Of a stretch of DNA of 32,052 nt, positions 11,901 through 25,881 are shown one piece after another. How positions within the stretch are numbered: position 1 is the first letter of the stretch; each line of letters begins with the position of its first letter. This stretch comes from Bacteroidota bacterium (lineage in GTDB: Bacteria > Bacteroidota > Bacteroidia > J057 > JADKCL01): positions 1 to 32,052 of the forward strand of contig JBCCQH010000095.1 of the NCBI GenBank assembly GCA_039024435.1. The letters run 5' to 3'. The notes under the pieces are model-generated. The model was not told the DNA's origin, did no database searches, and saw nothing but the letters and a program-made list of their open reading frames with translations. Both the position numbers and the translations under genes were made by a program.

Positions 11901-12543
11901 TCCCCTGGCGGGCGGAGACGTTGATTCCCAGACTGGCATTCCATTTCGTTTTGGCCAGGTCGGTGGACCCAATCGCGGGGTTCAGGCTCAAGCCCATGTC
12001 AAAACCGGTGTAGTTGTTGTGTTGCAACAGCATCGAAAAGCCTCCGTTCAAATACTGGTTGAATTCCGCCGCTTGGTTGGATCCGGCGGGCGGTTTGGTA
12101 TAGTTCAGGCCCGCAATCTCAAAATTGCGGCTCAGACTGACGCCCCAGGTGCGGTTGGGACGCATGTCCCGGTGGCGCTTGACCTGGTCCGTCCCGTTAA
12201 ATTCATCGGGCAATCCCCGCAAATTGCGCAGGATTGCCCCCACGTTGAGGTTCCAGCCCAGTCCCACCCAAGAAGCTTCCTGGTCCATCTGGATGCCCGC
12301 GTTGTAACTCAAGCTGACCGGATAACCCCCGACTTCCATCAGGGGCAAGTTGTACTTGAAATCTCCGGTGAAAAGGTCCACCATCTCACTGGTGGAGGCC
12401 GGACTGAAAGACTGGACTTCGGGCTGCGAAGGTCCGCTGGTGAGCGCGTAGGCGGTCAGCGGAAACAGAATTTGATTGAGGAGTGCGATCAGCAGCGTGA
12501 CCGCAAACAGTTTGAGAAATTGCGCTTTGGTGGTCATGTTCAT
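5929..12543 (-). CDS. TcB/TcaC-like toxin-complex component: signal peptide, SpvB-type N-terminal domain, a long middle region and a C-terminus ending in YD repeats (2204 aa).
   Basis: A 2204-aa ORF. The N-terminus MNMTTKAQFLKLFAVTLLIALLNQILFPLTAYA is signal-like. The motif PVSLSYNAGIQMDQEASWVGLGWNLNVGAILRNLRGLPDEFNGTD matches the SpvB/TcdB N-terminal signature (...SLTLNYNSGAGNSPFGLGWDCGV...GVPNYDETD). The C-terminus reads YATFYEYDEDGALIRVKKETERG (a YD repeat). The gene sits 6 bp after the upstream gene and 10 bp before the RHS gene. Confidence 0.8.
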   Translation of the reverse strand: MNMTTKAQFLKLFAVTLLIALLNQILFPLTAYALTSGPSQPEVQSFSPASTSEMVDLFTGDFKYNLPLMEVGGYPVSLSYNAGIQMDQEASWVGLGWNLNVGAILRNLRGLPDEFNGTDQVKRHRDMRPNRTWGVSLSRNFEIAGLNYTKPPAGSNQAAEFNQYLNGGFSMLLQHNNYTGFDMGLSLNPAIGSTDLAKTKWNASLGINVSARQGTAVRPQFGFSGLGEKRKKLALGQNLSLTTAINSRSGLRQLNLTAAKNQAFKSGDRRLNLPSWSQGVQLAHPTYTPGTDFPMRTISTSFRVQGFKGLPGWISNNDLVITGFYSQQEFQKNNITSSAYGYLNLHKGKDDREASLDFVRENDGGLRKETPHLPLTNLTYDTYAVSGQGVAGAFRAYRGDVGAVFDRANTISSNGVLNAGLQTNVGSNNVVGLDWMPALMSGGNGKWIDQNELLPKVNYVEANPASALYQPATFRMLGEQVQMDSDFFAERGGLDPVRPRLSGALGVSAQAAWTTGLSDAAADAVPVNAPVLRDQRRPGNAAISVLAAREAAVGGLEKTLQSYAVNGNLASATTLNRADAAAGRKDHHPSEFTVLGEGGNRYVYGIPAYNRVQKDVSFSVGKSALNATALPYNGGEIDYVSYYNATAQAIEPAGQDGFIDETEVDPYAHSYLLTAYLSSDYEDRTGDGPSGDDIGSYVKFNYSRDQASYRWRAPYEQWRAKHNPGLRGDPTDDQASYSYGEKEIWYLHSIESRDYVAFFVLSDRKDGHGVMGEHGGIDPNMNLRKLNRIDLFARREYLNPPTGQAPVPIQSVHFEYDYSLCPSVPNNDNSPASAQENELANQGGKLTLKRIYFTHYNSTKGKMNNYVFHYGGLNPAYNPQENDRWGMYTPSLSNNQDELKNVDYPYVVQDKALVDSYASAWCLTAVDLPSGGRMEVEYEADDYAHVQNRRAMRMMTITGLSNLPDDATASARSILYDPASNAQYSYLYFDLEEPIPQRTGDDRDDERFYQDYIHDLGQYLYFRCLVEWNALAWAPRPGEHEEFVRGYAELERADGRIVAGLDNASVNGNGAYTRGWIKVRLESVQDQDQGSGLQVHPIAKATWDQMVLQQNHLVYRGSTAYDPAQAGFEGAMRGMLGFFRDIFLVFSSRNRWMYNQQKYGQNIDKTQSFIRLPDPNRVKYGGGHRVKRILMYDNWDEMTGTTGTDFRYGKIYEYTVAEAIPDLNQPDADMTRRISSGVAAYEPIIGGDENPFRQPVRYEQSNFLAADERFLQEEPLGESMFPAPTVGYRQITVRNLPHANVRKNATGYAVHEFYTAKDFPTRVRDTGPRKRRSTSRFIPAFFKAGMTDFMTAAEGFVVERNDMHGKPKAIFAYPEPDPNAPPHKLVAREISGTRYFYRTRGELRDTLDNRVLVIRPDGTVAEAEMGLTLDMVTDMREYKTASVAVDLRAQIDFQPNAPAPIVSSIPGLTLERTRFRSAVATKVIDRSAILEKIVQYDRQAQIPTEHLAYDSETGQVLLSRTWNEYKQPIYDLIYPAHWIYGGMGLAYPRLEYQKTGLEFDPGNGAAINAGSDAVHFAVGDEVLLKRNGIGLYLGPYWVSHIAGNNLYLVDRAGNQVNSGNSTGAQFDLKIIRSIQRNLAGTAAGSVQFLENSPLVNNVLDVNAQKDWVLSSAAAEFSDDWKMLLNPDYPGVAGCSWLDLLGPLANSANTFGYPVGVGCGYNYEGVVTPPASAALILEFYDCDGNLFFNQTIPLNLTVPCPNGNLFLSNLAVVPDPNDPNRSLVSFELNCPAMPTPVVYGPISWPNPALCSSGNTRFPNTTACDSVGDVVNPWVQGLRGHWRALRTHAFLEDRAYVDANRPRLREDGVLADFVPFWRYSSGVQRWYGDKDAGNPFAGTPNARWQYTQQAEEFHPRGLEVESSDPIVTYAGAILGYDQSLVAAMGQNAEYRQLAFDGFEDYVLRDATANQCELFHWDFVQYSGQMSTDAAHSGFRSLKVEGNFPTVRSEVFAQSSGGGLNGNQEYVTGWDDRLDLFEPTAGDYVLLAWTRQEDTGSDIPPLRADRSRMLLYFTDGDGNAVGATETIGSKGTMIDGWQRIEHEFAVPDLPLGANGPLNVFVRFANTGPAQGPVYFDDVRISPKDAIVKSYVYHPYNRRLMAELDANHYATFYEYDEDGALIRVKKETERGIHTVQESRTSLRKVSFN
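12153..12415 (-). other. SpvB-like N-terminal domain region within the TcB-like protein (about residues 45-130).
   Basis: Motif match recalled from Photorhabdus TcdB/TcaC N-termini. No HMM was run. Confidence 0.55.
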
Positions 12544-12549
12544 CGGTAG

Positions 12550-14130
12550 TTAATTCTTCTCAAATCGGATGTAAAACGTCTCGTTCTTCTCATTGGTCAG
12601 TTCCAGGGTGTAGTGTCCGACCGCCAGGGAGCTGGTATTCACAGAAAACCGGTTCTCCCCGTAAGACTTTTGCAGGTTCAAAGCCGCCGCCGATTGCACG
12701 ATGTTTCGCCGCCAGTCCATGATTTGGACCTGCAACTGACCGGGATCGTATTCCCCTTCGTAGCGAAAGTGCAAGAAGCCATCCTGAATCTGGTACCAGG
12801 CCCCCGACGGTTTTCTATCCGGCACCGCGTAGACCTTCTCATACTTCGTTTTGGGACCGTCCGGGACATTGAAAATGACCAGAGCGGCCTGTCTCAACCA
12901 GGCATTTTCCGGCGGAAACTGGGCAAATGTCCCACTCGTCTGGTCCCCCACGTGATCTTTCCACTCCAGACGGGTCGCGAGTCCCCCCCGGAGATTGTCC
13001 AGGCGCAGGCGCCACTCCACGGCCACCTCCAACTCCCCCACCCGATTCCCTCGCAGCAAAAATTCTCCGGGAAGCAACTGGAACTCCGACGAATCCCCAT
13101 TCGGAATCGCCCCGTTTTCCCCCGCCAAGGTATCCAGCCTGCATTCGTACTCGCTCAACTGACTCAGGTCAAACCGCACGGCCATCCCCCGCAAGTTCAA
13201 GCTGTCCGTCCGCCGCGTGTAAAAGCGCCCGTGCAACTCACTTCCCACTTTCGCGGCGGTGCCCTCCGGCAAATGGTAGGTCCGCGCACTCCACCTTCCG
13301 CTCGCGTCGATCTGGGTGCGCAGCTCCGCCGACTGTCCGGCGATCCCAATGCGGTAGTCCCCGGGCAAAAGCGCCGCCGAAGCCCAACCGCTCCCCCCAA
13401 ATCCGTCCGGCCCATTCAACCAGTTCAACGCTTGATCGGTTTCCATCAGATTAAGGTATACGGTCCGGCCCGCGAGGTAGAGGGTGTCACTCCCGGAATA
13501 GATCAGGCCCGGCCCCAAAAGCATTTCCCCACGGCTCAAAGTCGAATCGCCGTCGGCAAAATAGACCGAATCGGACAGGCTGCCCGTGGCCGCCGGAAGT
13601 TGCAGGATAAAGTCGGCGGAGCGGTCCTTGCCGGTGCCGCTGGTCAGCCGGTAGGTTCCCGGAAACAGCGCCACGCTGCCGCCATTGGTCAGCGTGCGGT
13701 CCAGTTGGGGCAGGCGCAGGCTGTCATTGGCGACCGCGATCTCGGTATAAAAAGAGAGCGGCAACAACCGCAGGCGGCTTCCCTTGTTTTCCAATGCGTA
13801 GTAGGACGCGGGCAGGATCGAAGTGCTGGTGTCCGCGGGCAAGCGCCAGACCAGGTTGGAGATCGCCCCCTTGCTGCCGACGGCGAAGCGGATCACAGCA
13901 CTGATTTCCGTACTCACGTCCAGTTCCAAGGTGTAATCGCCCGCACTGATCCCGGTAAAGCCTTTCAAAGCGGGAATGACAAATACCGCGTCGGTTCCCG
14001 GCCCCACCAAACGGGCCGAAGTACTTTGCAGTAGCCTCAAATCCAGCTCAATATCGGCCGCTGGGAGCCAACTCCCCAAAAGCAGCAGCAATCCGATCCA
14101 GCCAATTCTCAATTTATAATTTGCGTTCAT
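12550..14130 (-). CDS. Secreted hypothetical protein, first gene of the Tc-like operon, with a possible T9SS C-terminal domain (527 aa from the preferred start; the ORF track extends to 14172).
   Basis: The ORF is 12550..14172. Internal Met15 begins MNANYKLRIGWIGLLLLLGSWLPAAD, a typical signal peptide. The C-terminus VGHYTLELTNEKNETFYIRFEKN resembles a T9SS sorting tail (weak). Its stop lies 6 bp upstream of the TcB-like start. Confidence 0.7.
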   Translation of the reverse strand: MNANYKLRIGWIGLLLLLGSWLPAADIELDLRLLQSTSARLVGPGTDAVFVIPALKGFTGISAGDYTLELDVSTEISAVIRFAVGSKGAISNLVWRLPADTSTSILPASYYALENKGSRLRLLPLSFYTEIAVANDSLRLPQLDRTLTNGGSVALFPGTYRLTSGTGKDRSADFILQLPAATGSLSDSVYFADGDSTLSRGEMLLGPGLIYSGSDTLYLAGRTVYLNLMETDQALNWLNGPDGFGGSGWASAALLPGDYRIGIAGQSAELRTQIDASGRWSARTYHLPEGTAAKVGSELHGRFYTRRTDSLNLRGMAVRFDLSQLSEYECRLDTLAGENGAIPNGDSSEFQLLPGEFLLRGNRVGELEVAVEWRLRLDNLRGGLATRLEWKDHVGDQTSGTFAQFPPENAWLRQAALVIFNVPDGPKTKYEKVYAVPDRKPSGAWYQIQDGFLHFRYEGEYDPGQLQVQIMDWRRNIVQSAAALNLQKSYGENRFSVNTSSLAVGHYTLELTNEKNETFYIRFEKN

Positions 14131-14817
14131 GGTCAACTCTTTGTAGTCAATAATTTTCCCTTCCGAAATCACACTTCTGTGACTTTCGGCGCATATCTCT
14201 CCCTCCCGATGCGGTCTACCGGTTGGAATGGGCGACGGCTCCGCCGATTTTCCCGGAATATCAACCAGGAAAGCCGCGCGGCCAAGCCGGCCTTAAATCA
14301 GCCTCGTCCGCGATTGGGGAGGCATTTTTTCAATGGAATGGTACTACTTAGATTTTTTCATAGGTTAATTTATGCTGTGGTCATTGGTCAGTATTCTCTC
14401 CGTGGGCGAAGCAATCACTTGTCCAACAAGGGCGTTGCGTGCTCCAACTGCACGGTTGCACACTTTGGGTAATTATTTGCTGACTTGTATTGTTTGTCGA
14501 GTATCTCTTTTGGCTCTCTATGACGATTATAAATATGCACAATTCACGGTAGATTGCAAAGCAATTTTTGACTTTCATCCCTAAATTTTACCGAATGGGG
14601 CGTTTGGGCGGATGTAACGGCCATTTTAGGGAACAATCCGCCGCACCTGCAAGGAAATTTGGATTGGGAATCATCGTTTTTCTGGATTGCTGATCGGGCG
14701 ATCAAACCGCGCCCATCGGAAACCGGTAATTGACCTCCACCGCGCGGTGTTCAAATTGATAAATTTGAATGCGGCTGCGGGAAGAACCTTGTTTTGGGTT
14801 GCTTGTAATTGAAGGGT

Positions 14818-14891: not shown

Positions 14892-15347
14892 ATGCGTCGA
14901 TCCATTGTTTCTACCGTTTTGGGCGCCTGCGCCCTGTTCTTGTGGTTTTCCGGGGCGGCTTGGGCCCAACAAGCCCCCAAAGCCAAGGACCGCACCGCCG
15001 TCCTTGCCATCATGGACCAGCAGGAAAATGCCTGGAATTCCGGCGATCTAGTCGCTTTCATGAACGGATACTGGCGCAATGATTCGCTCAAATTTATCGG
15101 GAAAAGCGGCGTCACCTACGGCTGGGACGCGACGCTGGCCCGCTACCAAAAAGGCTATCCGGATCAGGCCGCCATGGGAAAGCTCACCTTTACCATTTTT
15201 CACGTGGAGGCCATCGGCAAAAAAGCGATGTTGGTGGTGGGCAAATGGTTCCTCCAGCGCGCCGAGGACACGCCCAACGGACATTTTTCCCTGCTCTGGA
15301 AAAAAATCAAAGGCGAATGGGTGATCGTCGCCGACCATTCAAGCTGA
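14892..15347 (+). CDS. DUF4440/SnoaL-like (NTF2-fold) protein with signal peptide.
   Basis: Within ORF 14769..15347, the internal in-frame Met (MRRSIVSTVLGACALFLWFSGAAWAQQ) gives a signal peptide. The body YWRNDSLKFIGKSGVTYGWDATLARYQKGYPD...GHFSLLWKKIKGEWVIVADHSS is typical of the DUF4440/SnoaL-like family. Confidence 0.7.
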   Translation: MRRSIVSTVLGACALFLWFSGAAWAQQAPKAKDRTAVLAIMDQQENAWNSGDLVAFMNGYWRNDSLKFIGKSGVTYGWDATLARYQKGYPDQAAMGKLTFTIFHVEAIGKKAMLVVGKWFLQRAEDTPNGHFSLLWKKIKGEWVIVADHSS

Positions 15348-15641
15348 CCCGTCCGACTTCGACTGTCCGCCGAACCAGCCCTTCATCCGCTTCCAGGTCT
15401 TTTTCTGCTTGTTCCGGAAAAAGGTATATTTTCCAAAAATAAAGGCGTAGCCGAGAATGATCACATTGTAGATGGGCAGCATCGCAAAGATCCACATCAA
15501 CCAGTACTCCAGCGAAAATCGCTCGAAACCCAGTGCCTCCACAATCTGCCGACCCAGCCAGGCCACGGTGAAACCGGTGCAGGTAAATACAGTGAGGACC
15601 AGCACCACGTGGAGCGTCTTATTTTGTCGCCAATTGCTCAT
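15339..15641 (-). CDS. Small two-TM membrane protein (100 aa), translationally coupled to the upstream zinc-ribbon gene.
   Basis: Hydrophobic segments HVVLVLTVFTCTGFTVAWL and WLMWIFAMLPIYNVIILGYAFIF. Its start overlaps the upstream gene's stop (ATGA-type overlap). Confidence 0.6.
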   Translation of the reverse strand: MSNWRQNKTLHVVLVLTVFTCTGFTVAWLGRQIVEALGFERFSLEYWLMWIFAMLPIYNVIILGYAFIFGKYTFFRNKQKKTWKRMKGWFGGQSKSDGSA

Positions 15642-16174
15642 TCCAGGGCCGCCTCCATTTCCGATTTAGCTTGGTCGAGTTCACGCTTTCCGCGCCACAG
15701 CAGGTAGCTCCAGCCCCCGACCGGCAGCAACAGCAGCAGCGTCACCGTGATGTCCCAGCCGAACAGCAGAGGAGCGATCGGAAACAAGGCCAGCAGGAAC
15801 AACACGATGGTATTCGCCCGGACCGTCTGCCGCAGCACCCCGACTTTGTAAGGCAATAACACGCCACGCGCCGCCCGAATGTAATTTTCCATCCCGGGAA
15901 TCTGCAAATTGGCCCGCAGCTTTTTGATGAGCTTAAACGCATTGTCGACCGGCTCGTAGGGATTTTGGTGCTTCACTTGGGGATCTTCCAATTCTCGCAG
16001 CAAACCCTCCAATTCGTCCACGTCGCCGATGACTTCTTCCAGTACATTCAGAGAGTCCTCGGTGAAAAAAGCATTGCCGCAATTGGTACAAGCCGGAATC
16101 AAAGATTCTTGGGTCTTGTAACAACTCTTGCATTTAGTACGCAAATACTTGCGCCGGTCTTTGTGCTTTTTCAT
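15638..16174 (-). CDS. Zinc-ribbon (CxxC...CxxC) protein with a C-terminal two-TM membrane domain (178 aa).
   Basis: KCKSCY and CTNCGN motifs lie within the first 35 aa. The C-terminal hydrophobic helices are IVLFLLALFPIAPLLFGW and VTLLLLLPVGGWSYLLW. Confidence 0.7.
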   Translation of the reverse strand: MKKHKDRRKYLRTKCKSCYKTQESLIPACTNCGNAFFTEDSLNVLEEVIGDVDELEGLLRELEDPQVKHQNPYEPVDNAFKLIKKLRANLQIPGMENYIRAARGVLLPYKVGVLRQTVRANTIVLFLLALFPIAPLLFGWDITVTLLLLLPVGGWSYLLWRGKRELDQAKSEMEAALE

Positions 16175-16235
16175 CCCAAAACAACTTCCCGCAAAAATAC
16201 GCTTTTAAAATTGAACGGGGGAATTTCTAACTGCT

Positions 16236-16278
16236 GATTTCCGATTTCTGATTGGCGCGTCCGGAACGCGCAACCTAC
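16236..16278 (+). repeat. Copy B1 of the dispersed element (direct repeats plus the GCGCGT-CCGGA-ACGCGC hairpin).
   Basis: gatttccgatttctgattggcgcgtccggaacgcgcaacctac. It aligns nearly base-for-base with copy C at 27537..27588, including the AACCTAC/ACCCTAC tail. Confidence 0.7.
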
Positions 16279-16286
16279 AAGGGGCC

Positions 16287-16376
16287 GATTTCCAATTGCT
16301 CAATTTCCAATGTACTGCCAGGGAGCAGTGAGCGAAACGCCTTTCATTGAAAATTGAGCATTGGAAATTGGAAATC
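16287..16376. repeat. Additional ATTTCCAAT direct and inverted repeat units (B2 gatttccaattgctcaatttccaatg; B3 cattggaaattggaaatc) in the same 225-bp gap.
   Basis: Two ATTTCCAAT units with 15-nt start-to-start spacing, then an inverted pair 70 bp further on. The same 15-nt spacing is seen in copy C. Confidence 0.55.
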
Positions 16377-16399
16377 TTCCCACCGGAAATTCTCAATCG

Positions 16400-19300
16400 T
16401 CATTTTTCCATCGCCTTGCGCATTCCTTCAATCCCGTCGACGAGGCTCCCGAGCTGCGCGATGACTTGGCCAAATTTGTCGCTGGCGTCCACGCCGAGCA
16501 AACGCTGCTTTTTCAAGAACGTAGCCTGGATCTCCTGCCAGCGGGCCTTTTCCTCCGGCTTGAGGAAACCGATCAGCTCTTTGAAACGGAGCAGATTCGC
16601 TTCCGCGTCGTTCGTGAGCGTCTGGGACTCGCTCTCGTAATGGGTCATGATCAAAGTCATCAATTCCTGCTCGTTCATAATCGGAATGATCTTCTCGGCG
16701 AGCTTGTTCATGTCCCGGTACGAACCCTGCAACTTGAAGGCCGGCAGCGTGCGAAACTCCTCGGACATACCGGCGGAGCGGATGTACTCCTGGTTGACCT
16801 TGAGGATGACATCCCGCACCACCAAGAGCTTTTGCAGGACGGCAACGATCTCATTGACATCTTCCGGGGCGTAATTGCCTTCCAACTCGATGCCCTCGCG
16901 GCGATTCGACTCGGCGATCTGGAGGAAACCGTGGATATCCTTGTGCGCCCGCTGGGTGACCTTTTGCAAGACCACATTCGAGCTGAGGCTGTTTTCGATC
17001 AGGGAAAGTTCAAAGAAATGCGCCGTATCCCCGATGATATCACCCAGATTATAGGTATCGGCCCGGTTTGCGAGCATATCCGGAATCTGAAACTTGTCCC
17101 CCGATTCCGTGTAGGGATTGCCTGCCATGACCACACAGACCCGCTTGCCCCGCAGGTCGTAGGTCTTGGGCTGATCCTTGTAGACGCCCTCGATCTTGCG
17201 CTGCGCGTCGCACAGGCTGATGAACTTCTGAAGGAATTCCGGGTTGCAGTGCTGGATGTCGTCCAGATAAAGCATGATGTTGTCCCCCATTTCCAGGGCC
17301 AAATTCAGCTTTTGCAGCTCTTCGCGCGCGGCCGCATTCGGCGCTTCTTCCGGATCCAATGACCGCACCGAGTGCCCAATCGCCGGCCCATTGACTTTCA
17401 TAAAGATCAGTCCCAGGCGGTTGGCGATGTACTCCATCAGCGTCGTCTTGCCGTAGCCCGGCGGCGAAATCAACAGCAACAGCCCTTGCCGGTCGGTGCG
17501 CTTGTTTTCGCCCACCGTCCCGATCTGCTTGGCCAGATTGTCCCCAAACAGCGGCAGGTAGACCTCGTCGATGAGCTTGTTCCGCACAAACGACGACAAC
17601 ACCCGGGGCTGGAATTCATTGAGGCGCAATTCCTGCCGGAACTCCTCGGTAAGGCGCTTTTTGAGCCCTTGGTACCGCTCGAAAGCCGGCACTTCCGTCG
17701 TGGTAAAATCGCCGAGTTCGTGCATGAAGTGATTGTAGTCCAGGCGGTAAGCGCCTTTCGGGCCGATCTTGGGGTGGTCGCCGGACAAGGCTTCCACTTC
17801 GCCGACCACACTGGCCACCGACAGACGCACTGCCTCCACCCCACCGCGGAACAGCACCATCGCCGCTTCATCGATGTAGTCCTCCCCATCGGGAACATTT
17901 TGCTGGTGGACGTAAGCGCTCACCCAGTTGCGCAGCAACTGGAATTGCTCGGCGATCCGGCCTTCGAGCCGCTTGAGCGATTGTTCAAAGGTCTTCCCCA
18001 TCGACTTTTGGTCCAGGTAAGCCAGAAAATCCTGCCCGATGCGCGTGCCCTCCGGCGAAGCCACAAACCGGTTCCCCGCCGAAATCTCGTGGAACAAATA
18101 CTCCGCCGCCGAACCCGCCAGTGCCTCCCGGAACAGGCCGGTTTCCACACAAAAAGCCGCCATTCCCGTGCGCAGATCACCGATCAGCGCCCCAAACTCG
18201 TCCGAGTCGGGAAAGACCTGCAAGATGAAGCCGACCCCCTGCAAACGGTGGTCAAACAGCTCACGCGCCGACGCATCCAGGAAATAATCCCACCACATCG
18301 CGGCGCAGGCCCGGGCCTCGGGCAGATAGCGCAAAAGCCCGATGGACCGGTGCAAGCCCACCAAGGTCCGCAGAATCCGCAGCGCATCTTGGTCGTGGAC
18401 CCCTTTTGCGTAGCCTTCCTGGTAGCGCGGCCCAGCAAATTGCTGCAAGCGCTGGCCCTGCTCCTCCGCCGAAAGCTCGGCAAATTCGCTCAGTCCTCGG
18501 CGGTTGCCGTCCTCGCGCAGCGCCGCAAAAAACAGGTACGCCAGGTATTCCGCCCGGTACACCGTACTATTTTCCGACACCAATTCCTGGTCCCAGACCG
18601 GCCGCGTCGCCTCGAACTCCGGATGGCGGATCAATTCGAAAAAGTTGGTTCCGGTCAGGTGAAAATACTGCTCGTCCTCCCGCCGGATGACGGTCAGGTC
18701 CAGCGATTGAACATTCACCGAAAACTTGTGGCGGCCCAGGCGAATGATATTTTCCCCGTCCACAAAGAGTTCCTGCCGGTCTTTGAGCTGGCGCAGCGCA
18801 TCCTCGCGAATGGTTTTGAGGCGCGATTGCAAGTCCTCCGCCTTGACATTGTCTTCCAGGGCGCGCAGCTTTTCCACTACGTCCCGCACCTTGTCGATCA
18901 TCAGATCACCGGCAAAGTAGCCGTTGATTTCCTGTGCCGTACCGAAGTTGTTTACCCGGTTCCGGATGCCGGACAGGATCCGCTCGGCGGACTTAAAGAG
19001 GGCCGCCGCTTTCTTGTTGCGGGCCTCGACGAGCTGCACTTTTCGGGACTCAAAGGCATTGTAGATTTCCTCCCGTTTCTCCGCGATCTGACCGATAAAC
19101 TCGTCAAATTCACTGAACTTGCCCTCCAATTCTTCGACCTGCACCATGAGTTTGGTCAGGTACTCGTCGACTTTTTCCGGCGTGTCGGCCACGTCCAGGA
19201 AATTGATGACCGCCTGGCTGAGGAGCTTGATTTGGCTGGCGAATTCTGCGACGGCTTCGGTAGAAACCAGCTCTTTGCGCCGGCGCCGCAGCGCCGCCCG

Positions 19301-21310
19301 CGCCTGATTCAACTCCGAATAGATGTTCGAGATGTGGTCGATGATCTTCGTCGTCTGGGTCGCATCCTCGATTTTGAGGTTGGATACGATTTCGACCAGC
19401 AGTTCCAGATCAGAGCCGGTCTGCTCGATGGCCGCTTCTAAGGTCGCCGCTTCCGCTGCAGTATTGACCTTTTCGATGGCCGCGCGGTGAGCAGCAACTT
19501 GCTGCTCGTAAGGTCGCAGCGCATCTTCGCGCAGCAAGAATTCCACGCAACGCTGGCTCAGCCGCTCCGATTGGGCGCTCAGATCTTCCTCCAGCGACTG
19601 CACCAATTCCAAGTCCACGTAGCGCAGTTCCTTCAGCCCGATGGCTTCGCCCCGCCAGTTGCGCAGTTCCGCGAGGAAGCGCACAAACTGATTTACCTCG
19701 TCAAAAATGCTCCGCTTGATCTCCGCAATCAGCTTTTGGGCAGCTTCGGATACCCGGCGGGATTCTTCGGCGGTGTGCCGGCGGATCCGCACGACTTTTT
19801 CAAACTCCTCGATGGCATTTTCCGCACTGCGGCGGATGCCCTTGAGCGGGTCATCCAGTTGGAACGACTCGTCGCGGTCCAGCCAGTAGTAGCTGTCGAG
19901 GATGTCGCCGGTCAGTTTGCCCAGGTCGAGGTAGAGATTTGCGTAGGTGTCTTCTTTGTTCAGCAAAATAAGCACCTCCTGGCATTCGGCCATCGCCCGG
20001 ACGATATCCCGGTTGCCGATCTTGAAGAGGTAGTTGTCCGCGTTGCCGGTCAGTTCAAAATCCGGCCCCACGTAGGGCGTCTGCCAAATCTGGATCGCGT
20101 GGTGTTTGCGCGGCTCGTCTTCCGCCTTGAAGTAGCAGAGCTCACCATTTTCGAAATGGCAGAACCCGTTGCACGTGATTGGGGTTTCTACCTGTTGGGC
20201 GATGATGTTGTAGCTCAACATCACGTAGGTTCCGGTCGGTGAATTGTAAAACACATACAGGTAGTCCTCCCCATTGGGGCTCTGAATGCGCTCTTCGAAG
20301 TGCATTTCGGTCAACCCCGATTCAAAGCGCTTATATTCGCCGGTCTGCAGGTAGTAGCCGTCGGCAAAAATGATTCCGTGGTCGTCCGGCAACAAGATGC
20401 AGGAGTGGGCAATCGAATCGATGCGGCGGGCTTGCTGCACCTTTTCGTTGTAGGCAAAGTAGCGGTACTGCTTTTCCTGGAAAGGCCGTACCCGCAGCAG
20501 GATAATGTTCCCCAGATCGGCAAAAAAGATCTCGGCATCGTCCAGGCTTTGCTCTTTGTGAGCGACTTCCTCTTCCAGTATGCCCCGACCGTGATCGGTA
20601 TTGTCTTCCACTTTGATGGTCAAAGTGCCACCGATTGTCTGCACAAACAGGCGATCAAGAATCGAAACGTGGGGAAATTCCCCGGAGCGCTGCATATCGC
20701 GGTGGGCCCTTTTCCAGGCAAATTCGTGCTGGGTCGGATAGCGCACATCCGCTTCACTGCGGCTGTCCACGTAGCGCAGTCCGCCTTCGCCCAATCGCCA
20801 CTTGAACGCCTTGATATCGGTTTCGCTCTTGCCGATCCGAAAGACCATGTACAGAAAGATCCCAATCACCTCGAACTTCACGAAGACGGTTTCGCGGTAA
20901 TACTTGTACAGATTTCCGAAGTCTTCCGCAAACTTTTCATTCTGGATCAGGTCCAGGGGCTCTTGGTGAAAGCGCCGGTCTTCGTAGCGGTAGATGCTGA
21001 ATACATCGCTGAGTTTGGTTTCGGTGCGCAGTCCCATGTGGACATTGTAACCGAAGATTGTGCGGTCCCCCACGGCGACGATGTCGCGGGCGGTGCAGTT
21101 GTTTTCCGTAGAAATGCGATCCGTCGACAGCAGGTTGAAATCGACCGAGCCGAAGACTTCCTTGCGGGCATGGTTGAGCTTGCCCAGGCGCGTGCGCAGT
21201 TCGGCCCCTTGGTTAAGCAGACGGTTGCGAATGATCTCGTAAGCGCCCCCTTCCAACTGGACGGTAGGCTCCGCCGCCGAGGATTCAAGATTGGGGTTTT
21301 CGTTTGCCAT
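16400..21310 (-). CDS. Giant (1636 aa) protein with a C-proximal MoxR/AAA_5-class AAA+ ATPase domain. The N-terminal ~1250 aa comprise a beta-rich repeat region and a ~450-aa helical/coiled-coil region that I cannot assign to a family.
   Basis: Walker A is LLLISPPGYGKTTL (around 17440-17475). Walker B/second region is LYLDDIQHCNPEFLQKF, and sensor-1 is VCVVMAGNPYTESGDKFQIPDMLANRA, matching MoxR/AAA_5 spacing. The long N-terminus shows no other recognizable catalytic motif. Confidence 0.9.
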   Translation of the reverse strand: MANENPNLESSAAEPTVQLEGGAYEIIRNRLLNQGAELRTRLGKLNHARKEVFGSVDFNLLSTDRISTENNCTARDIVAVGDRTIFGYNVHMGLRTETKLSDVFSIYRYEDRRFHQEPLDLIQNEKFAEDFGNLYKYYRETVFVKFEVIGIFLYMVFRIGKSETDIKAFKWRLGEGGLRYVDSRSEADVRYPTQHEFAWKRAHRDMQRSGEFPHVSILDRLFVQTIGGTLTIKVEDNTDHGRGILEEEVAHKEQSLDDAEIFFADLGNIILLRVRPFQEKQYRYFAYNEKVQQARRIDSIAHSCILLPDDHGIIFADGYYLQTGEYKRFESGLTEMHFEERIQSPNGEDYLYVFYNSPTGTYVMLSYNIIAQQVETPITCNGFCHFENGELCYFKAEDEPRKHHAIQIWQTPYVGPDFELTGNADNYLFKIGNRDIVRAMAECQEVLILLNKEDTYANLYLDLGKLTGDILDSYYWLDRDESFQLDDPLKGIRRSAENAIEEFEKVVRIRRHTAEESRRVSEAAQKLIAEIKRSIFDEVNQFVRFLAELRNWRGEAIGLKELRYVDLELVQSLEEDLSAQSERLSQRCVEFLLREDALRPYEQQVAAHRAAIEKVNTAAEAATLEAAIEQTGSDLELLVEIVSNLKIEDATQTTKIIDHISNIYSELNQARAALRRRRKELVSTEAVAEFASQIKLLSQAVINFLDVADTPEKVDEYLTKLMVQVEELEGKFSEFDEFIGQIAEKREEIYNAFESRKVQLVEARNKKAAALFKSAERILSGIRNRVNNFGTAQEINGYFAGDLMIDKVRDVVEKLRALEDNVKAEDLQSRLKTIREDALRQLKDRQELFVDGENIIRLGRHKFSVNVQSLDLTVIRREDEQYFHLTGTNFFELIRHPEFEATRPVWDQELVSENSTVYRAEYLAYLFFAALREDGNRRGLSEFAELSAEEQGQRLQQFAGPRYQEGYAKGVHDQDALRILRTLVGLHRSIGLLRYLPEARACAAMWWDYFLDASARELFDHRLQGVGFILQVFPDSDEFGALIGDLRTGMAAFCVETGLFREALAGSAAEYLFHEISAGNRFVASPEGTRIGQDFLAYLDQKSMGKTFEQSLKRLEGRIAEQFQLLRNWVSAYVHQQNVPDGEDYIDEAAMVLFRGGVEAVRLSVASVVGEVEALSGDHPKIGPKGAYRLDYNHFMHELGDFTTTEVPAFERYQGLKKRLTEEFRQELRLNEFQPRVLSSFVRNKLIDEVYLPLFGDNLAKQIGTVGENKRTDRQGLLLLISPPGYGKTTLMEYIANRLGLIFMKVNGPAIGHSVRSLDPEEAPNAAAREELQKLNLALEMGDNIMLYLDDIQHCNPEFLQKFISLCDAQRKIEGVYKDQPKTYDLRGKRVCVVMAGNPYTESGDKFQIPDMLANRADTYNLGDIIGDTAHFFELSLIENSLSSNVVLQKVTQRAHKDIHGFLQIAESNRREGIELEGNYAPEDVNEIVAVLQKLLVVRDVILKVNQEYIRSAGMSEEFRTLPAFKLQGSYRDMNKLAEKIIPIMNEQELMTLIMTHYESESQTLTNDAEANLLRFKELIGFLKPEEKARWQEIQATFLKKQRLLGVDASDKFGQVIAQLGSLVDGIEGMRKAMEK
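17020..17490 (-). other. AAA+ (MoxR/AAA_5-like) ATPase core of the giant protein (about residues 1275-1430).
   Basis: Walker A, Walker B and sensor-1 motifs as above. Coordinates are derived from residue positions. Confidence 0.7.
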
Positions 21311-21326
21311 TGAAGTAATTTGGTGA

Positions 21327-21341
21327 TGATCGGATCATCTT
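21327..21341. promoter_or_regulatory. Small inverted repeat GATGATC-CG-GATCATC about 20 bp upstream of the giant ATPase start codon.
   Basis: gatgatccgatcatc is a perfect 7-bp inverted repeat in the 161-bp gap between the flotillin and ATPase genes. Confidence 0.3.
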
Positions 21342-21380
21342 AAAATGGTGACCGGAGTCCGGTCTTGTTTCGGGGATGGA

Positions 21381-21434
21381 GGGTGCCCCGGGCACCCGGA
21401 GCGCATCCGCACGCCTTTCGGGGTGCGGATGCGC
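21381..21434 (-). promoter_or_regulatory. Two adjacent GC-rich stem-loops in the flotillin-to-ATPase intergenic gap: a 7-bp stem GGGTGCC/GGCACCC and a perfect 12-bp stem GCGCATCCGCAC/GTGCGGATGCGC with a 10-nt loop.
   Basis: gggtgccccgggcaccc followed by gcgcatccgcacgcctttcggggtgcggatgcgc. No U-tract follows on the transcribed strand, so this is not a canonical intrinsic terminator. A role as a partial attenuator, processing site or stability element is possible. Confidence 0.5.
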
Positions 21435-21471
21435 GGGGGAAGTACCCCGGTCGCGGGTTCAACCGGGCCGA

Positions 21472-23727
21472 TCAGAGTCCGAGGAGTTTGGCTGGTTGCT
21501 CGGCGATGCCGGTTTTCCAGGCGGCATTCATCAGCGTATTGAGCATGCCCTTCACGCCGGAGTCCTCGGTCGACTGGTTCATCTTGAGCAACAAGCTCGC
21601 AATGCTTAGGTTTTTGATGTCCTCCGATCCGATGCCGACCTGCTGGACGAGGTCGCGGATCTTGTCGATCAGATTGTGGTCGCCATCTTCGCCGCCGCCC
21701 AACAGATTTTGCTTCACGTCCTGCAGGGTTTGGCTGTTGCCAATCAGGCTGTCGATGGCCTTGCCCTGGGAAATGGACTGGATGATGCGGGAGAAGAACT
21801 CCTGCTCACCGCCGACGATGTCGATGTTGGCGGCCTTGAGGGCCTCGGCGAGGACGGCGGCCTGGGACTCGGCGATGGAAGCCTGGATGTTGATCTGGGC
21901 GAGTTCCACGTCGCGGTCTTTGGCGAGCTGGAGCTTGAATTCTTCGTGCTCCTTGCCCACTTCGTCGAGCTTCTTCATGGCGTCGGCTTTCTTCTCGATG
22001 CCTTTGGCTTCGGCAAACAGCTTCTCTTCGACGACTTTGGCTTCGGCAAGGCCTTCGCGCTCGATGGCTTCGGCATTGGCGGTTTTGCCTTTGGCTTCGG
22101 CGAGGGCGGTCTGCTCGAGGACGTTGGCCTGCTTGAGGCCTTCGACTTCGGTGGCCGAGGCTTTGAGTTCGATTTCTTTGGCTTCCGCGTCAGCCCGGAG
22201 AGCGATTTCTTTGGCCTGGGCTTCGGCGCGGGTCGAGATTTCGATGGCATTGGCCTGGGCGCGCAGTTCGATGACTTTGGCGTCGGCTTCCCCTTCGCGC
22301 TCTTTGGCCTGGGCCTTTGCTTCCATAACCTGGGCTTCGGAGATTCCGATGGCGGCTTGCTCGGCGGCGGTGGCTTCGGCCATTTTCTTTTTGGCCTGGG
22401 CTTCCAGCTCACTGGACTTCAGTTCCGCGTCGGCTTCGATGAGCTTCTGCTTGGCACGGACTTCAGCGGCTTCTTTTTCGGCTTCCGCCACGACGACCTG
22501 CTTGATTTTTGCCTGCTCGGCTTCTTTCTCGGCCTCGGTAATGGCAACTTGCTTCGATCGGTCCGCCGTGGCAAATTCCCGAGTGTCTTTGATCTTTTCT
22601 TCTTCGGCGACGGTCGCTTTTTCCACGACGACCCGCTCGCGGATCACTTCCTGGATGTTTTTGCGCTCTTCTTCGATCGATTTCTCTTTTTCAATCTGGG
22701 CCAGGCTCACGACGCGTTCCCGCTCGTTGATCTCCAACTGCTTGTCCTTTTCCACGCGCTCAGTTTCCACCGCGTCGGTGCGTTCTTTGGACTTTTCGGC
22801 GACGATGATCTGCCGGGACTTGTTTTCCTCAGCAATCGCCACTTCTTCTTCGGTTGCGATGCGGGCGCGCTCGGAGCGCAGCAATTCCTCTTGCTGGATT
22901 TTTTTGGTTTCGGCTTCTTCGCGGGCAGTGATCGCGGCGATTTCCCGCTGCTGCACCTGCTCTTTTTCTGCGAGTTGGCGGTTCAGTTCCAGGATTGCTT
23001 CCTGGGCCTCCACGTCCTGCTGCGTAATGACCTTTTTCTCCTCATTGCGGATATTGTTGGCCAGAATCCGCTGCTTCGCGGTCAGGTCAGTGATCTTTTT
23101 GATCCCCTCCGAGTCGAGAATGTTGTCGTCCTGCAAAAACTCAATTGGGGTCTGCTCCAGGTAGTCGATGGCGGCATCATCCAGCACGTAGCCATTTAAC
23201 TGAGTCCCGATCGTATTGAGGATCTCCTGGCGGAAGCGCTCCCGCGCATCGTACAGTTCGACAAAATCAAACCGCTTGCCCACGGTTTTGAGGGCTTCCG
23301 AGAATTTTGCCTCAAACAACTGGTTCAGCGTTTGTTCCCGCGATGCGCGCGCCACACCGATGGTCTGGGCGACGTTGATCACCGCATCGTCTTTGGGATT
23401 GACCCGGACGAAAAATACGACTTTGATGTCCGCGCGCATGTTGTCCTGGCAGATCAGCCCATCCTTGCCGGTCCGGCTGATTTCCACCTTTTTGACGGAG
23501 ATGTCCATCCATTCCATGCGGTGCAGAATGGGGACGACGGTCATACCGTTGAAGGTAACCTTGGTTCCCCCGACGCCGGTCCGAACGATGGCTTTGCCCT
23601 GGGGAACTTTTTTGTACCACGACAGGACCAGGGCGACGATCAGGAAAGTGAGCACCACGACGGCCACCGCCACGATCAGAATCGTGTTGCCAAACACGTC
23701 GCCGAGTAGATTGATGTTTCCTAGCAT
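21472..23727 (-). CDS. Flotillin-like SPFH/band-7 protein (YqiK/FloT family): N-terminal TM, SPFH domain and a long EA-repeat coiled coil (751 aa).
   Basis: N-terminal hydrophobic helix ILIVAVAVVVLTFLIVALVLSW, then the SPFH core (VKKVEISRTGKDGLICQDNMRADIKVVFFVRV...), then about 350 aa of Glu/Ala/Lys-rich heptad-like repeats (EAEAKEIELKASATE...), and a conserved flotillin C-terminal tail. Confidence 0.9.
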   Translation of the reverse strand: MLGNINLLGDVFGNTILIVAVAVVVLTFLIVALVLSWYKKVPQGKAIVRTGVGGTKVTFNGMTVVPILHRMEWMDISVKKVEISRTGKDGLICQDNMRADIKVVFFVRVNPKDDAVINVAQTIGVARASREQTLNQLFEAKFSEALKTVGKRFDFVELYDARERFRQEILNTIGTQLNGYVLDDAAIDYLEQTPIEFLQDDNILDSEGIKKITDLTAKQRILANNIRNEEKKVITQQDVEAQEAILELNRQLAEKEQVQQREIAAITAREEAETKKIQQEELLRSERARIATEEEVAIAEENKSRQIIVAEKSKERTDAVETERVEKDKQLEINERERVVSLAQIEKEKSIEEERKNIQEVIRERVVVEKATVAEEEKIKDTREFATADRSKQVAITEAEKEAEQAKIKQVVVAEAEKEAAEVRAKQKLIEADAELKSSELEAQAKKKMAEATAAEQAAIGISEAQVMEAKAQAKEREGEADAKVIELRAQANAIEISTRAEAQAKEIALRADAEAKEIELKASATEVEGLKQANVLEQTALAEAKGKTANAEAIEREGLAEAKVVEEKLFAEAKGIEKKADAMKKLDEVGKEHEEFKLQLAKDRDVELAQINIQASIAESQAAVLAEALKAANIDIVGGEQEFFSRIIQSISQGKAIDSLIGNSQTLQDVKQNLLGGGEDGDHNLIDKIRDLVQQVGIGSEDIKNLSIASLLLKMNQSTEDSGVKGMLNTLMNAAWKTGIAEQPAKLLGL
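21990..22700 (-). repeat. Low-complexity coding repeat (GCTTCGGC-type units) that encodes the flotillin EA-rich coiled coil.
   Basis: ggcttcggc / gccttcg units recur across about 700 nt and create long spurious off-frame ORFs on both strands. Confidence 0.6.
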
Positions 23728-23816
23728 TTTAGTTCAATAAGTATTAGAAGATGTTGAAATGGTTTTCCGATATGCGGTTGCTATGCTTGTTTTCGGCCAT
23801 AAATAACGAGGGGCAG

Positions 23817-24560
23817 TCAGGCCGATGCGGGCGATTCCAGCGCGATTTCTTCCGCGAATTCCTGCACGGAGAACACGCTGTTGCCTTCCCGGACTTCTCT
23901 TTCCAGAATGAGGCAGCGGGTGCCCGAGGTGATCTTTTCTCCATCAAATGAGCGCACGGTGATCCGCAGGTGCTTGTCCCGCACCACGACATCCGCTTGC
24001 CCCAAGCGCACCCCTTCTACCCCCAGTTCCAGCGTACACAGCTTTCCGATCAGGTTCACCGGGGCATCGCCTTTGCTCATTTCGCGGAACATCTTGCGCA
24101 GCGGCTGGGTAAACAGCTTGGCCACCAGCAGTCCAAACACGAAACCGCCCCCGAGAATTCCCGCGGTCAACCCAGGCTGACCGGCGGCAAAATAGTGGTT
24201 CCCGATGATGGAAGCTGCCCAGTAAAACAGCGCAAAAAAGCTGAAAAAGATCATAAAAGGCACGTCTCCCAGGTTCAAAAAGTAGAGTATCCGTGCGCCG
24301 AGTCCGGGCGATTTGCCCGCCAGGGCTTTCCCCATGTCCTTGCCGCCTTTGCTGCCCACCTCGGAATCCGCATCGACGTCGACATCCACGTCCACGTCGA
24401 CATCCACGTCCACGTCCAAATCGACATCTACGTAGAAGTCCATGAAACTCAGGTCGAGCATGCCAAATAGAAAGACCAGCCAATACAGCACCACAAAAAG
24501 GAGCAGTATAGTCGGAAATACATTGGCAGGGGAAAATGATAAGTCGAAGATTTCTTTCAT
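23817..24560 (-). CDS. NfeD-like (YqiJ-type) membrane protein with a C-terminal OB-fold, the canonical partner of SPFH proteins. It carries an internal (Asp-Val)n repeat (247 aa).
   Basis: N-terminal TM helices, then YVDVDLDVDVDVDVDVDVDVDVDADSE, further TM segments (FMIFFSFFALFYWAASIIG, GILGGGFVFGLLVAKLF), and a C-terminal beta-rich domain (LGQADVVVRDKHLRITVRSFDGEKITS). It lies 89 bp upstream of the flotillin gene, matching the yqiJ-yqiK / nfeD-floT arrangement. Confidence 0.8.
   Translation of the reverse strand: MKEIFDLSFSPANVFPTILLLFVVLYWLVFLFGMLDLSFMDFYVDVDLDVDVDVDVDVDVDVDADSEVGSKGGKDMGKALAGKSPGLGARILYFLNLGDVPFMIFFSFFALFYWAASIIGNHYFAAGQPGLTAGILGGGFVFGLLVAKLFTQPLRKMFREMSKGDAPVNLIGKLCTLELGVEGVRLGQADVVVRDKHLRITVRSFDGEKITSGTRCLILEREVREGNSVFSVQEFAEEIALESPASA
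24366..24435 (-). repeat. Imperfect tandem hexamer (GACGTS)n inside the NfeD-like gene, encoding alternating Asp-Val.
   Basis: catcgacgtcgacatccacgtccacgtcgacatccacgtccacgtccaaatcgacatctacgtag. Confidence 0.7.
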
Positions 24561-24574
24561 CGAAGTTCCGAATC

Positions 24575-24625
24575 CCGTATAGGTGTGCTAAAATCTAAAA
24601 AAATCGGGGTGCAAAAAAGCGTTCA
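24575..24625 (-). promoter_or_regulatory. Candidate Bacteroidota-type promoter (TTTG ... TAGATTTT) for the nfeD-flotillin operon.
   Basis: The minus-strand sequence cttttttgcaccccgatttttttagattttagcacacc lies 30-60 nt upstream of the ATG. It is only a partial match to the -33 TTTG / -7 TAnnTTTG consensus. Confidence 0.25.
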
Positions 24626-25020
24626 ACGCAATTTTTTTCGCCCCACTTATGCAGGTACGAAGTTGACGTTGGCAAGAATTTCAATTGGGGGGAAGTCCGG
24701 GGCGGTTGTTTGATTCTCGTCCCCAGCGGGACCGCACGGTCTACCAAGACAGCGCGTCGCAATCGGCTTGGGTCAGTTGGCCCCGGAAAGTGGAGTGGGT
24801 AATGGTGTTTACATAGATGGTAAGCTTAGCGATTTGTAGTAAATACGGAAAAGTAAATCGCCGGGTTGCAAGTATCACTACTATTTTTAATAGTTTTATT
24901 TTTAATACATGGATCTGTCAGAAAAACTGTACATTCAGCTCACGCCATTGTCGAGGACGGCACTAAGAATGCCGAATCGTTTGCTATATTGGCCCAACTT
25001 ATATACCAAAGCTGATTCAC

Positions 25021-25881
25021 ATGAAAAATATCTCCTTTTTCTTCCTGTTCATGGTGGCGGCGCTGTTGTTCGTTGGGTGTGAGCAAGCCGCCGAATCCAG
25101 CGGCGAAGAAGCTCCCCCAACCCAAGACGCTCCCGAAGCCACGCAGCCCGCTCCGCCAGAAACCTCCACAAAATTCAGCGCCGGTGGCTTGACGGTCTAC
25201 GCCATCGAAGATTCGCCACAATTTCCCGAGGCCAGCCTGGAAATGAACGAGCCGGTCATCGGAACCGATCTGGAACCAGGCGAAAACAGCTTCGATTTCA
25301 CCGTTTCCGGGTACGAATTGGGGGTACCGACGCCCGGGGCCGGCGACAACGGCCTCGCCAATTCTGGCAAAGGTCAGCACATCCACTTGATCATGAACAA
25401 TGGGCCGTACTCGGCGCACTACGAGCCCAGTTTCACCAAGGATTTAGAGGAAGGTCACTACGTTGCCCTCGCGTTCCTCTCGCGCAGCTTTCACGAAAGT
25501 GTCAAAGCCCCGAACGCCTTTGCGGTCAGCCAGTTTGTGGTCGGCACCCCGGCAAATATCAAAGAAGCCAATCTTTCCGCTCCGCACCTGTTTTACAGCC
25601 GCCCAAAAGGCAGTTATTACGGCGAAGACACAGAAAAACTGTTGCTGGACTTTTTCCTGGTCAATTGCAACCTGAGTCCGGACGGCTACAAAGTGCGCGC
25701 CACCATCAACGGCAACGAATTCACGTTTACCAAGTGGGTACCCTACGCCGTGGAGGGCCTGAAGTTCGGCGAGGTCACGGTCAAGCTTGAACTGCTGGAC
25801 AAAGCGGGAAACCTGGTCGAGAGCCCCTTCAATCCAGTAGAGCGTACGGTTACGCTGGCGGAAAAGCAGTCGGAAGGTTGA
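25021..25881 (+). CDS. Lipoprotein of unknown function (286 aa).
   Basis: MKNISFFFLFMVAALLFVGCEQ is a lipobox-type signal with Cys, followed by a low-complexity Pro/Glu/Ala linker and a globular domain with no recognizable motif. Confidence 0.75.
   Translation: MKNISFFFLFMVAALLFVGCEQAAESSGEEAPPTQDAPEATQPAPPETSTKFSAGGLTVYAIEDSPQFPEASLEMNEPVIGTDLEPGENSFDFTVSGYELGVPTPGAGDNGLANSGKGQHIHLIMNNGPYSAHYEPSFTKDLEEGHYVALAFLSRSFHESVKAPNAFAVSQFVVGTPANIKEANLSAPHLFYSRPKGSYYGEDTEKLLLDFFLVNCNLSPDGYKVRATINGNEFTFTKWVPYAVEGLKFGEVTVKLELLDKAGNLVESPFNPVERTVTLAEKQSEG

Follow-up and report, generated by a model that had tools for sequence, protein, structure and literature searches.

A conserved gene cassette for an NfeD-like protein, a flotillin and a DUF3686-family ATPase, a candidate ATP-driven partner of flotillin scaffolds

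Organization and conservation of the cassette

The stretch of DNA analyzed here (the window) comprises 32,052 nucleotides from a Bacteroidota bacterium (contig JBCCQH010000095.1, assembly GCA_039024435.1). On its reverse strand lies a cassette of three genes, encoding an NfeD-like membrane protein, a flotillin and a giant ATPase, which is the subject of this study. The first gene (23817..24560, -) encodes a membrane protein of 247 amino acids (aa) of the NfeD/YqiJ-YuaF type, the second (21472..23727, -) a YqiK-type (SPFH2) flotillin of 751 aa and the third (16400..21310, -) a cytoplasmic DUF3686-family ATPase of 1636 aa. Two more genes follow on the same strand, one for a zinc-ribbon (Zn-ribbon) protein and one for a DUF6787 protein; both lie outside the cassette and are described further below. 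Gaps of 89, 161 and 225 bp separate the genes in the order NfeD-flotillin-ATPase-Zn-ribbon, whereas between the Zn-ribbon and DUF6787 genes there is an overlap of 4 bp. A first-pass annotation of the window, made from the sequence alone, had described five open reading frames (ORFs) with these coordinates, gaps and overlap, and all of them were recovered. Identical gene calls are present in a public record of a Bacteroidota metagenome-assembled genome (GCA_038745175.1, contig JBCDLP010000117.1). The five ORFs are not chance products, because homologues of the ATPase form more than 5300 clusters at 90% identity, distributed across phyla and sharing about 56% full-length identity between phyla.

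The distribution of the cassette was analyzed in a genome sample with one genome per species, which yielded 80 ATPase loci from Bacteroidota, Planctomycetota, Verrucomicrobiota, Desulfobacterota, Kiritimatiellota and Clostridia. For the counts of upstream genes, loci with 4.5 kb or more of sequence on that side were used, 62 in all and drawn from at least six phyla. A flotillin gene lies directly upstream of the ATPase gene, on the same strand, in 59 of these, and an NfeD-like gene precedes the flotillin gene in 55. For the reverse test an independent metagenome collection was used, in which loci were picked by their flotillin; the ATPase gene is the next gene downstream on the same strand in 60 of the 64 loci with at least 1.5 kb of downstream sequence. 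Hence, the coupling of NfeD, flotillin and giant AAA+ protein that the first-pass annotation had suggested is conserved in both directions. Flotillin and ATPase genes are separated by 10-130 bp or overlap in many loci (-10 bp in L058 and L060). The pairwise-distance matrices of the three proteins are correlated as well (r = 0.72-0.76, Mantel p ≤ 0.001), a result that fits co-inheritance as a unit and to which shared phylogeny also contributes. Judged by gene order and conservation, the cassette is a real three-gene operon, strongly conserved across phyla, and the window contains an ordinary, clean and minimal member of it. The window locus itself brings nothing beyond this clean minimal example. 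The cassette is also present in tractable genera, namely Flavobacterium, Bacteroides, Sphingobacterium and Hymenobacter.

The junction between the flotillin and ATPase genes appears to tolerate insertions. About 20 loci have unrelated genes there, 0.5-2.4 kb in size, and several of these resemble selfish elements. The inserts include DUF559-like genes (L023, L030, L009), IS200/REP-transposase-like genes (L007, L057) and lipoprotein genes (L002, L004, L040). A fourth conserved gene at this position was considered and rejected, since the inserts in the 0.5-2.4-kb gaps are heterogeneous.

Upstream of the NfeD-like gene, an intergenic region (24561..25020, no strand assigned) presumably contains the promoter of the cassette. 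It is shared with a divergent lipoprotein gene (25021..25881, +), which was recognized by its signal peptide and a public gene call. No notable sigma-70, Bacteroidetes -7 or CTAA-N5-TTAG motif was found in this region. Scans for sigma-70 promoters and intrinsic terminators returned the same counts as shuffled sequences and are uninformative for a Bacteroidota genome.

Domain architecture of the encoded proteins

The NfeD-like protein has three transmembrane (TM) segments, an acidic D-x-D loop and a beta-rich C-terminal domain. Its match to the Pfam model YqiJ_N (E = 3.7e-4, 21.1 bits) falls just below the 23-bit cut-off; among 29 homologues, YqiJ_N is matched by ten and NfeD by two. A profile built from these homologues was aligned to E. 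coli YqiJ by hhalign with a probability of 96.3% (E = 1.9e-9) over 178 columns. At the C-terminus the beta-rich sequence carries a conserved G..GQA...G..V.KG pattern. By these profile matches the protein is a member of the YqiJ/YuaF subgroup, with a homology to YqiJ that covers both TM region and C-terminal domain. In the loop following the first TM segment (window 24363-24434, about residues 43-66) lies an acidic (Asp-Val)n tract, DVDLDVDVDVDVDVDVDVDAD. Nearly all 29 aligned homologues have an acidic D-x-D tract of variable length in the same loop. The tract thus counts as conserved, not as a local expansion, and possibly binds cations.

The flotillin consists of an N-terminal TM segment (residues 16-34), an SPFH/Band_7 domain, a long charged helix and a conserved C-terminal region. 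A Pfam scan of the full-length protein gave no match, probably because of its biased helical region. When the N-terminal 257 aa were scanned alone, Band_7 was found at residues 40-181 (E = 3.6e-11, 43.9 bits against a cut-off of 23.6). In a BLASTP comparison with E. coli YqiK, residues 17-452 aligned with residues 12-438 at 30% identity (E = 2e-48). The helix is charged, free of proline and glycine, and about 335 aa long (about residues 225-560). The C-terminal ~175 aa, used alone, have homologues in 67 of the 80 loci (about E = 1e-40) and do not align with the C-terminus of YqiK, which is ~200 aa shorter than the window flotillin. Taken together, the Band_7 domain following a membrane anchor, the homology to YqiK including the EA-rich helix, and the NfeD-type gene upstream identify the protein, at the level of sequence and context, as a YqiK-type SPFH2 flotillin.

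The AAA+ domain had been regarded as the sole recognizable module of the ATPase. Pfam scans revealed two others, DUF3686 (PF12458; residues 37-475, 19886..21202, -) with E = 1e-184 and 614.6 bits against a cut-off of 25, and DUF7902 (PF25472; residues 596-680, 19271..19525, -) with E = 1e-28. DUF7902 is located inside a helical, coiled-coil stretch (about residues 477-870, 18701..19882, -) recognized by composition and heptad periodicity: proline and glycine make up 0-5%, charged residues at least 40%, and several windows show a periodicity of 3.5 residues. This stretch is followed by a conserved middle region (about residues 871-1244, 17579..18700, -) and by a MoxR-like AAA+ module with a helical lid and C-terminal helices (residues 1245-1636, 16403..17578, -). 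DUF3686 is essentially confined to the N-terminus of proteins of 1600-1930 aa, and the ATPase has the N-terminal DUF3686, the C-terminal AAA domain and the length of these large ATPases.

An AlphaFold2 (AF2) model of residues 1-500, with a mean predicted local distance difference test score (pLDDT) of 86.7, contains an N-terminal helix followed by an all-beta part of about 27 strands. Foldseek searches of the Protein Data Bank (PDB) with this model returned only beta-propellers, namely the DCAF1 WD40 domain, Elp1 and the propeller of prolyl-oligopeptidase. The matches had a probability of 1.0 but TM-scores of 0.2-0.4, and the DUF3686 propeller would therefore be one without a close solved relative. 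In the model, DUF3686 thus appears to be a propeller-like domain. The search for remote homology and structure that the first-pass annotation had proposed for the N-terminal part of the ATPase was consequently successful for the DUF3686 propeller and DUF7902, and left residues 871-1244 without a family match. In this middle region no Pfam family was matched by residues 860-1230 even at E ≤ 1, nor was a VWA domain found; many of its residues are invariant and common to different phyla.

Within the AAA+ module, residues 1278-1401 match the Pfam families AAA (27.5 bits) and AAA_5 (26.3 bits), both above cut-off. AAA_22 is matched below threshold, and the MoxR-specific model AAA_3 gave no match to the ATPase at E ≤ 0.1. 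The sequences GYGKTT, DDIQHC and MAGNPY...ANRA, which the first-pass annotation had pointed out, are all present. They comprise Walker A (GYGKTT, K1288), a Walker B of the form hhhhDD (D1350-D1351), sensor 1 (N1398) and R1416 in ANRAD. These five residues are invariant in 38 homologues, which indicates selection for enzymatic function. An AF2 model of the module (pLDDT 79.7) has a beta-hairpin between the Walker B and sensor-1 strands, and among solved structures it comes nearest in fold to the MoxR proteins CbbQ and NorQ. A sequence match to the PDB covered only Walker A and pointed to p97/Cdc48, that is, to the classical clade; fold comparison corrected this assignment. With a modelled fold nearest to MoxR members and an insertion before the sensor-1 strand, the module is best described as MoxR-like, and the initial MoxR-class assignment holds. 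The ATPase has no TM segment, its sole hydrophobic window being located in the propeller strands. It is thus predicted to be soluble, whereas both cassette partners are predicted membrane proteins.

A molecular ruler was also considered, in which the coiled coil of the ATPase and the helix of the flotillin would be matched in length. It was rejected, as the two lengths are uncorrelated (rho = 0.03) and length differences are mostly due to C-terminal extensions.

Extended operons and relation to known systems

The genes surrounding the cassette were surveyed by clustering 148 flanking ORFs from 37 loci. PspA recurs in 19 of the 37 loci and CesT_Tir_1 in 13; no other family occurs in more than three. 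Of the 80 loci, 21-23 (about a quarter), all of them in Bacteroidota, contain the operon in an extended form with the gene order CesT_Tir_1 (PF22550, E = 1e-56), PspA (PF04012, E = 2e-41), NfeD, flotillin and ATPase. This form adjoins a divergent gene for an HTH_3 and S24-like (CI/LexA-like) regulator. The window belongs to the abbreviated, PspA-less class, in which a divergent lipoprotein gene stands upstream of NfeD.

In the extended class, the intergenic region between the regulator and CesT_Tir_1 genes contains the palindrome CTAA-N5-TTAG in nine of 21 cases (L017, L025 at about 4906-5124, L028, L034, L035, L049, L050, L059 and L067); in 500 shuffles the mean was 0.27 and the maximum three. 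A second palindrome, TTGC-N11-GCAA, is found in 12 of the 21 promoter regions. CTAA-N5-TTAG is the operator of a non-canonical Bacteroidetes LexA, as shown by electrophoretic mobility shift assay in a paper that does not mention PspA or flotillin (PMC8565304). The regulator beside the extended operon has NLEM where LexA has GDSM, and may therefore be a non-cleaving LexA paralogue. These sequence features suggest SOS-type or CI-like control of the extended membrane operon. The window itself contains no CTAA-N5-TTAG box.

The first-pass annotation had presented the system as undescribed. In fact, Ravi et al. 2024 (mSystems, PMC11237479; preprint 2020) reported operons that join CesT/Tir-PspA with a flotillin, a YqiJ/YuaF protein of three TM segments and an ATPase of propeller, coiled coil and AAA+ domain. 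The same study noted a wider distribution for abbreviated operons, which consist only of the genes for flotillin, YqiJ/YuaF and in some cases the ATPase, and from context it proposed a role in sub-membrane assembly and dynamics. It deals with the operon in a few sentences and on computational grounds alone. The three proteins, their order and their architectures are the same as in the window cassette (example Dokdonia donghaensis ANH61663.1); that the Dokdonia ATPase belongs to the same family rests on matching architecture and context. The Flavobacteriia loci of our sample match the extended Dokdonia architecture, whereas the window has neither PspA and CesT/Tir nor the regulator. The association of flotillin, NfeD and ATPase is thus already in the literature, in computational form only. 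Literature searches gave no match for DUF3686 or PF12458 and nothing relevant for flotillin with DNA repair ATPase or for MoxR with flotillin. A survey of SPFH proteins described NfeD-SPFH2 pairs, and the word ATPase is absent from it (Hinderhofer et al. 2009, PMC2636767).

In E. coli (YqiJ-YqiK) and B. subtilis (YuaF-FloT) an NfeD-like gene is likewise followed by a flotillin gene. Unlike in the window cassette, no ATPase gene lies downstream of E. coli yqiJK. SPFH scaffolds are paired with AAA+ machines at the same membrane in HflK/C-FtsH and prohibitin-m-AAA. There, FtsH is a membrane-embedded AAA+ protease of the classical clade that is enclosed in an SPFH cage. The ATPase of the window differs from FtsH in being soluble and MoxR-like, in lacking a protease domain and in having a propeller and a coiled coil. 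With the MoxR/VWA systems (CbbQ-CbbO, NorQ-NorD, RavA-ViaA) it shares a MoxR-like NP...R sensor-1/arginine region and the beta-hairpin before the sensor-1 strand. Unlike the ATPases of these systems, it has no VWA partner and no AAA_3 match, is five times larger, is fused to propeller and coiled coil, and carries a DD Walker B. The absence of a VWA protein from the cluster, noted in the first-pass annotation, extends further: no VWA domain was found in the five proteins, their neighbours or the ATPase middle region, and none recurs in the flanks of the 37 loci.

In S. aureus, too, a flotillin and its NfeD partner act on membrane proteins during stress: FloA-NfeD is an ATP-independent stabilizer (holdase) of unfolded membrane proteins (Ukleja et al. 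2024, PMC11222466). In contrast to the window cassette, FloA-NfeD has no associated ATPase, and FloA belongs to a different SPFH subgroup from the window flotillin.

Possible functions and neighbouring genes

From sequence and by analogy with these systems, we favour with moderate confidence the reading that the ATPase is an ATP-driven remodeller working on a flotillin/NfeD scaffold in envelope stress. The flotillin, anchored by its N-terminal TM segment, would join NfeD in an oligomeric scaffold of the SPFH type that covers the inner membrane on its cytoplasmic side. The ATPase, probably a ring oligomer, would be recruited to this scaffold via the propeller and the coiled-coil arm and would use ATP to remodel the scaffold or the proteins held by it, through assembly, disassembly or client release. 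A flotillin/NfeD holdase that otherwise works without ATP would thereby gain an energy-dependent step. The system would serve envelope or membrane stress, and in about a quarter of the loci its genes form a single operon together with those of CesT/Tir and PspA.

The assembly, opening and recycling of SPFH scaffolds, those of flotillin among them, is a question that concerns bacteria and eukaryotes alike. An ATPase that stands beside one flotillin subfamily in ~95% of loci and retains ~50% identity over 1600 residues between phyla is the obvious candidate for the missing energy-dependent step. A more specific proposal, which we put forward tentatively, is a dedicated ATP-powered SPFH machine: a MoxR-like motor ring, bearing arms of propeller and coiled coil, would assemble, open or strip flotillin/NfeD cages and, in Bacteroidota, would be wired to PspA and to a regulator with an SOS box in its promoter. 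If true, this machine would be the first energy-dependent regulator known for any flotillin scaffold, and its Bacteroidota version would link a DNA-damage-type signal to membrane remodelling through the ESCRT-III-like PspA and a CI/LexA-like regulator.

Several observations weigh against an ATP-driven remodeller. The Walker B motif (window 17258-17263) reads DD, not DE, in all 38 homologues, and the pore-loop position, NGPAIGH, is invariant and without the aromatic residue typical of threading unfoldases. Hidden Markov models (HMMs) built from the 21-23 extended loci detected no PspA, CesT or regulator in the window; the link to envelope stress is therefore borrowed from relatives. Three loci (L012, L022 and L027) encode a full-length ATPase with 7-10 kb of upstream sequence and no flotillin or NfeD gene nearby. 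The lengths of ATPase and flotillin do not co-vary (rho = 0.03) and give no support to a matched-length contact, and shared ancestry alone can produce a mirror-tree correlation of the kind observed. In the experimental literature, no interaction, expression or phenotype data were found for any member. Given the DD Walker B and the non-aromatic pore loop, the ATPase may act as a slow switch rather than as a processive motor.

The main rival sees in the ATPase a maturation chaperone of the MoxR type that serves one specific enzyme complex of the membrane, with flotillin/NfeD concentrating the client and the propeller replacing the VWA adaptor. Its models are cofactor insertion or complex assembly as in CbbQO, NorQD and RavA-ViaA. 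CbbQ and NorQ are indeed the nearest solved folds, AAA_5 is matched above cut-off, propellers are typical protein-binding adaptors, and flotillins are thought to scaffold membrane complexes. However, no partner with a VWA domain or metal ion-dependent adhesion site (MIDAS) was found, AAA_3 is not among the Pfam matches, and no enzyme gene recurs in the flanks of the 37 loci. We therefore consider such a chaperone unlikely, albeit less so than the readings that follow.

A role in defence had also been raised for the locus. In anti-phage defence or abortive infection, the giant ATPase would act as sensor and flotillin/NfeD would execute membrane damage or exclusion. Defence systems often include large NTPases with repeat sensor domains, the cassette is spread across phyla in a patchy manner resembling horizontal gene transfer, and one relative with 71% identity has a TIR_2 protein gene two genes downstream of the ATPase (L081, 13460-14407). 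This TIR_2 gene does not recur in other loci, though, and the remaining evidence is contrary. The five proteins have no meaningful PADLOC match (the best, with E = 0.002, covers only the P-loop), NCBIfam returned nothing but P-loop noise for them, and no effector domain is present. Among the 148 flanking ORFs, matches were sporadic, at most two per family and with generic enzymes included, and no defence gene recurs in the 37 loci. No relative of the ATPase was detected in 2.9 million viral contigs (IMG/VR), and conservation of about 50-57% over 1600 aa between phyla is extreme and unlike that of fast-evolving sensors. A defence function is hence improbable. The neighbourhood analysis that the first-pass annotation had called for bore out the co-occurrence of the three cassette genes, and revealed neither defence islands nor the Zn-ribbon and DUF6787 genes in related loci.

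NCBI and Pfam name the family "DNA repair ATPase" or "ATPase involved in DNA repair", which would make the protein an SMC/Rad50/RecN-like enzyme with an incidental flotillin neighbourhood. The long coiled coil agrees with this name, and the LexA box CTAA-N5-TTAG in nine of the 21 extended-operon promoters hints at regulation linked to DNA damage. Against it, the protein has a single C-terminal AAA+ fold nearest to MoxR instead of an ABC/SMC head and matches no ABC/SMC family, Pfam detected neither a DNA-binding nor a nuclease domain, its gene stands beside those of membrane-protein partners in about 95% of loci, and no paper backing the name was found. Repair of DNA is a very improbable function for this ATPase. 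We infer that the name most likely arose from coiled-coil similarity; the widely propagated label is very probably wrong and unfit for inference.

Downstream of the ATPase stop codon, a spacer (16175..16399, -) likely forms the 3' boundary of the cassette. Its predicted RNA fold has a free energy of -70.8 kcal/mol (z = -4.8), and none of 200 shuffles was as stable. The spacer contains an imperfect inverted repeat with arms of 23 nt at 16290-16312 and 16345-16367, which are 83% complementary, together with an adjacent GC hairpin. Present once in the window, the element (16290-16367) may act as a terminator or represent a small repeat. A Bacteroidetes-type -7 box, TATTTTTG (TAnnTTTG; 16192-16199, -), is positioned 18 nt before the ATG of the Zn-ribbon gene; as TAnnTTTG occurs in the window at chance frequency, the box is suggestive only.

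The Zn-ribbon gene (15638..16174, -) encodes a protein of 178 aa with the CxxC...CxxC motif and two TM segments previously noted, and without a family match in Pfam or NCBIfam. The small protein of 100 aa encoded next to it (15339..15641, -) has two TM segments and belongs to DUF6787 (PF20584, Pfam E = 6e-21). Homologues of the two are found in none of the 80 related genome loci. Relatives with an ATPase of 81-85% identity have either an AraC-family gene or a convergent gene for a pseudouridine synthase downstream instead, and at 69-71% identity other genes follow the ATPase; the Zn-ribbon protein has no similarity to the products of the downstream genes of close relatives. Because both genes are absent from the loci and swapped in relatives, and because of the hairpin spacer, we place the end of the cassette at 16400 and count three genes in it. 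The Zn-ribbon gene and its DUF6787 neighbour would then be an unrelated adjoining unit. That their products are subunits of the flotillin-ATPase complex, as the original five-gene proposal implied, is hardly credible: both are membrane proteins encoded on the same strand after a gap of 225 bp, but the missing homologues, the different genes in relatives at 69-85% identity and the stable hairpin with the -7-like box between the ATPase and Zn-ribbon genes all argue against a five-gene machine.

Elsewhere in the window, type IX secretion system (T9SS) sorting domains encoded by neighbouring genes are consistent with an origin in Bacteroidota. An ORF of 2204 aa (5929-12543, -) has no Pfam match, and neither do three ORFs of 1155, 311 and 301 aa (528-3995, 3999-4934 and 5001-5906, all +); these four may encode large uncharacterized surface proteins. 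Next to the 2204-aa ORF lies the gene of a 540-aa protein (12550..14172) with a weak match to a T9SS sorting tail. Towards the other end of the window, a gene for a small P-loop kinase-like protein (AAA_33/AAA_18; 30011-30550, +) is followed at its 3' side by one for a HATPase_c_3 (MORC/GHKL-type) protein (30641-31798, +).

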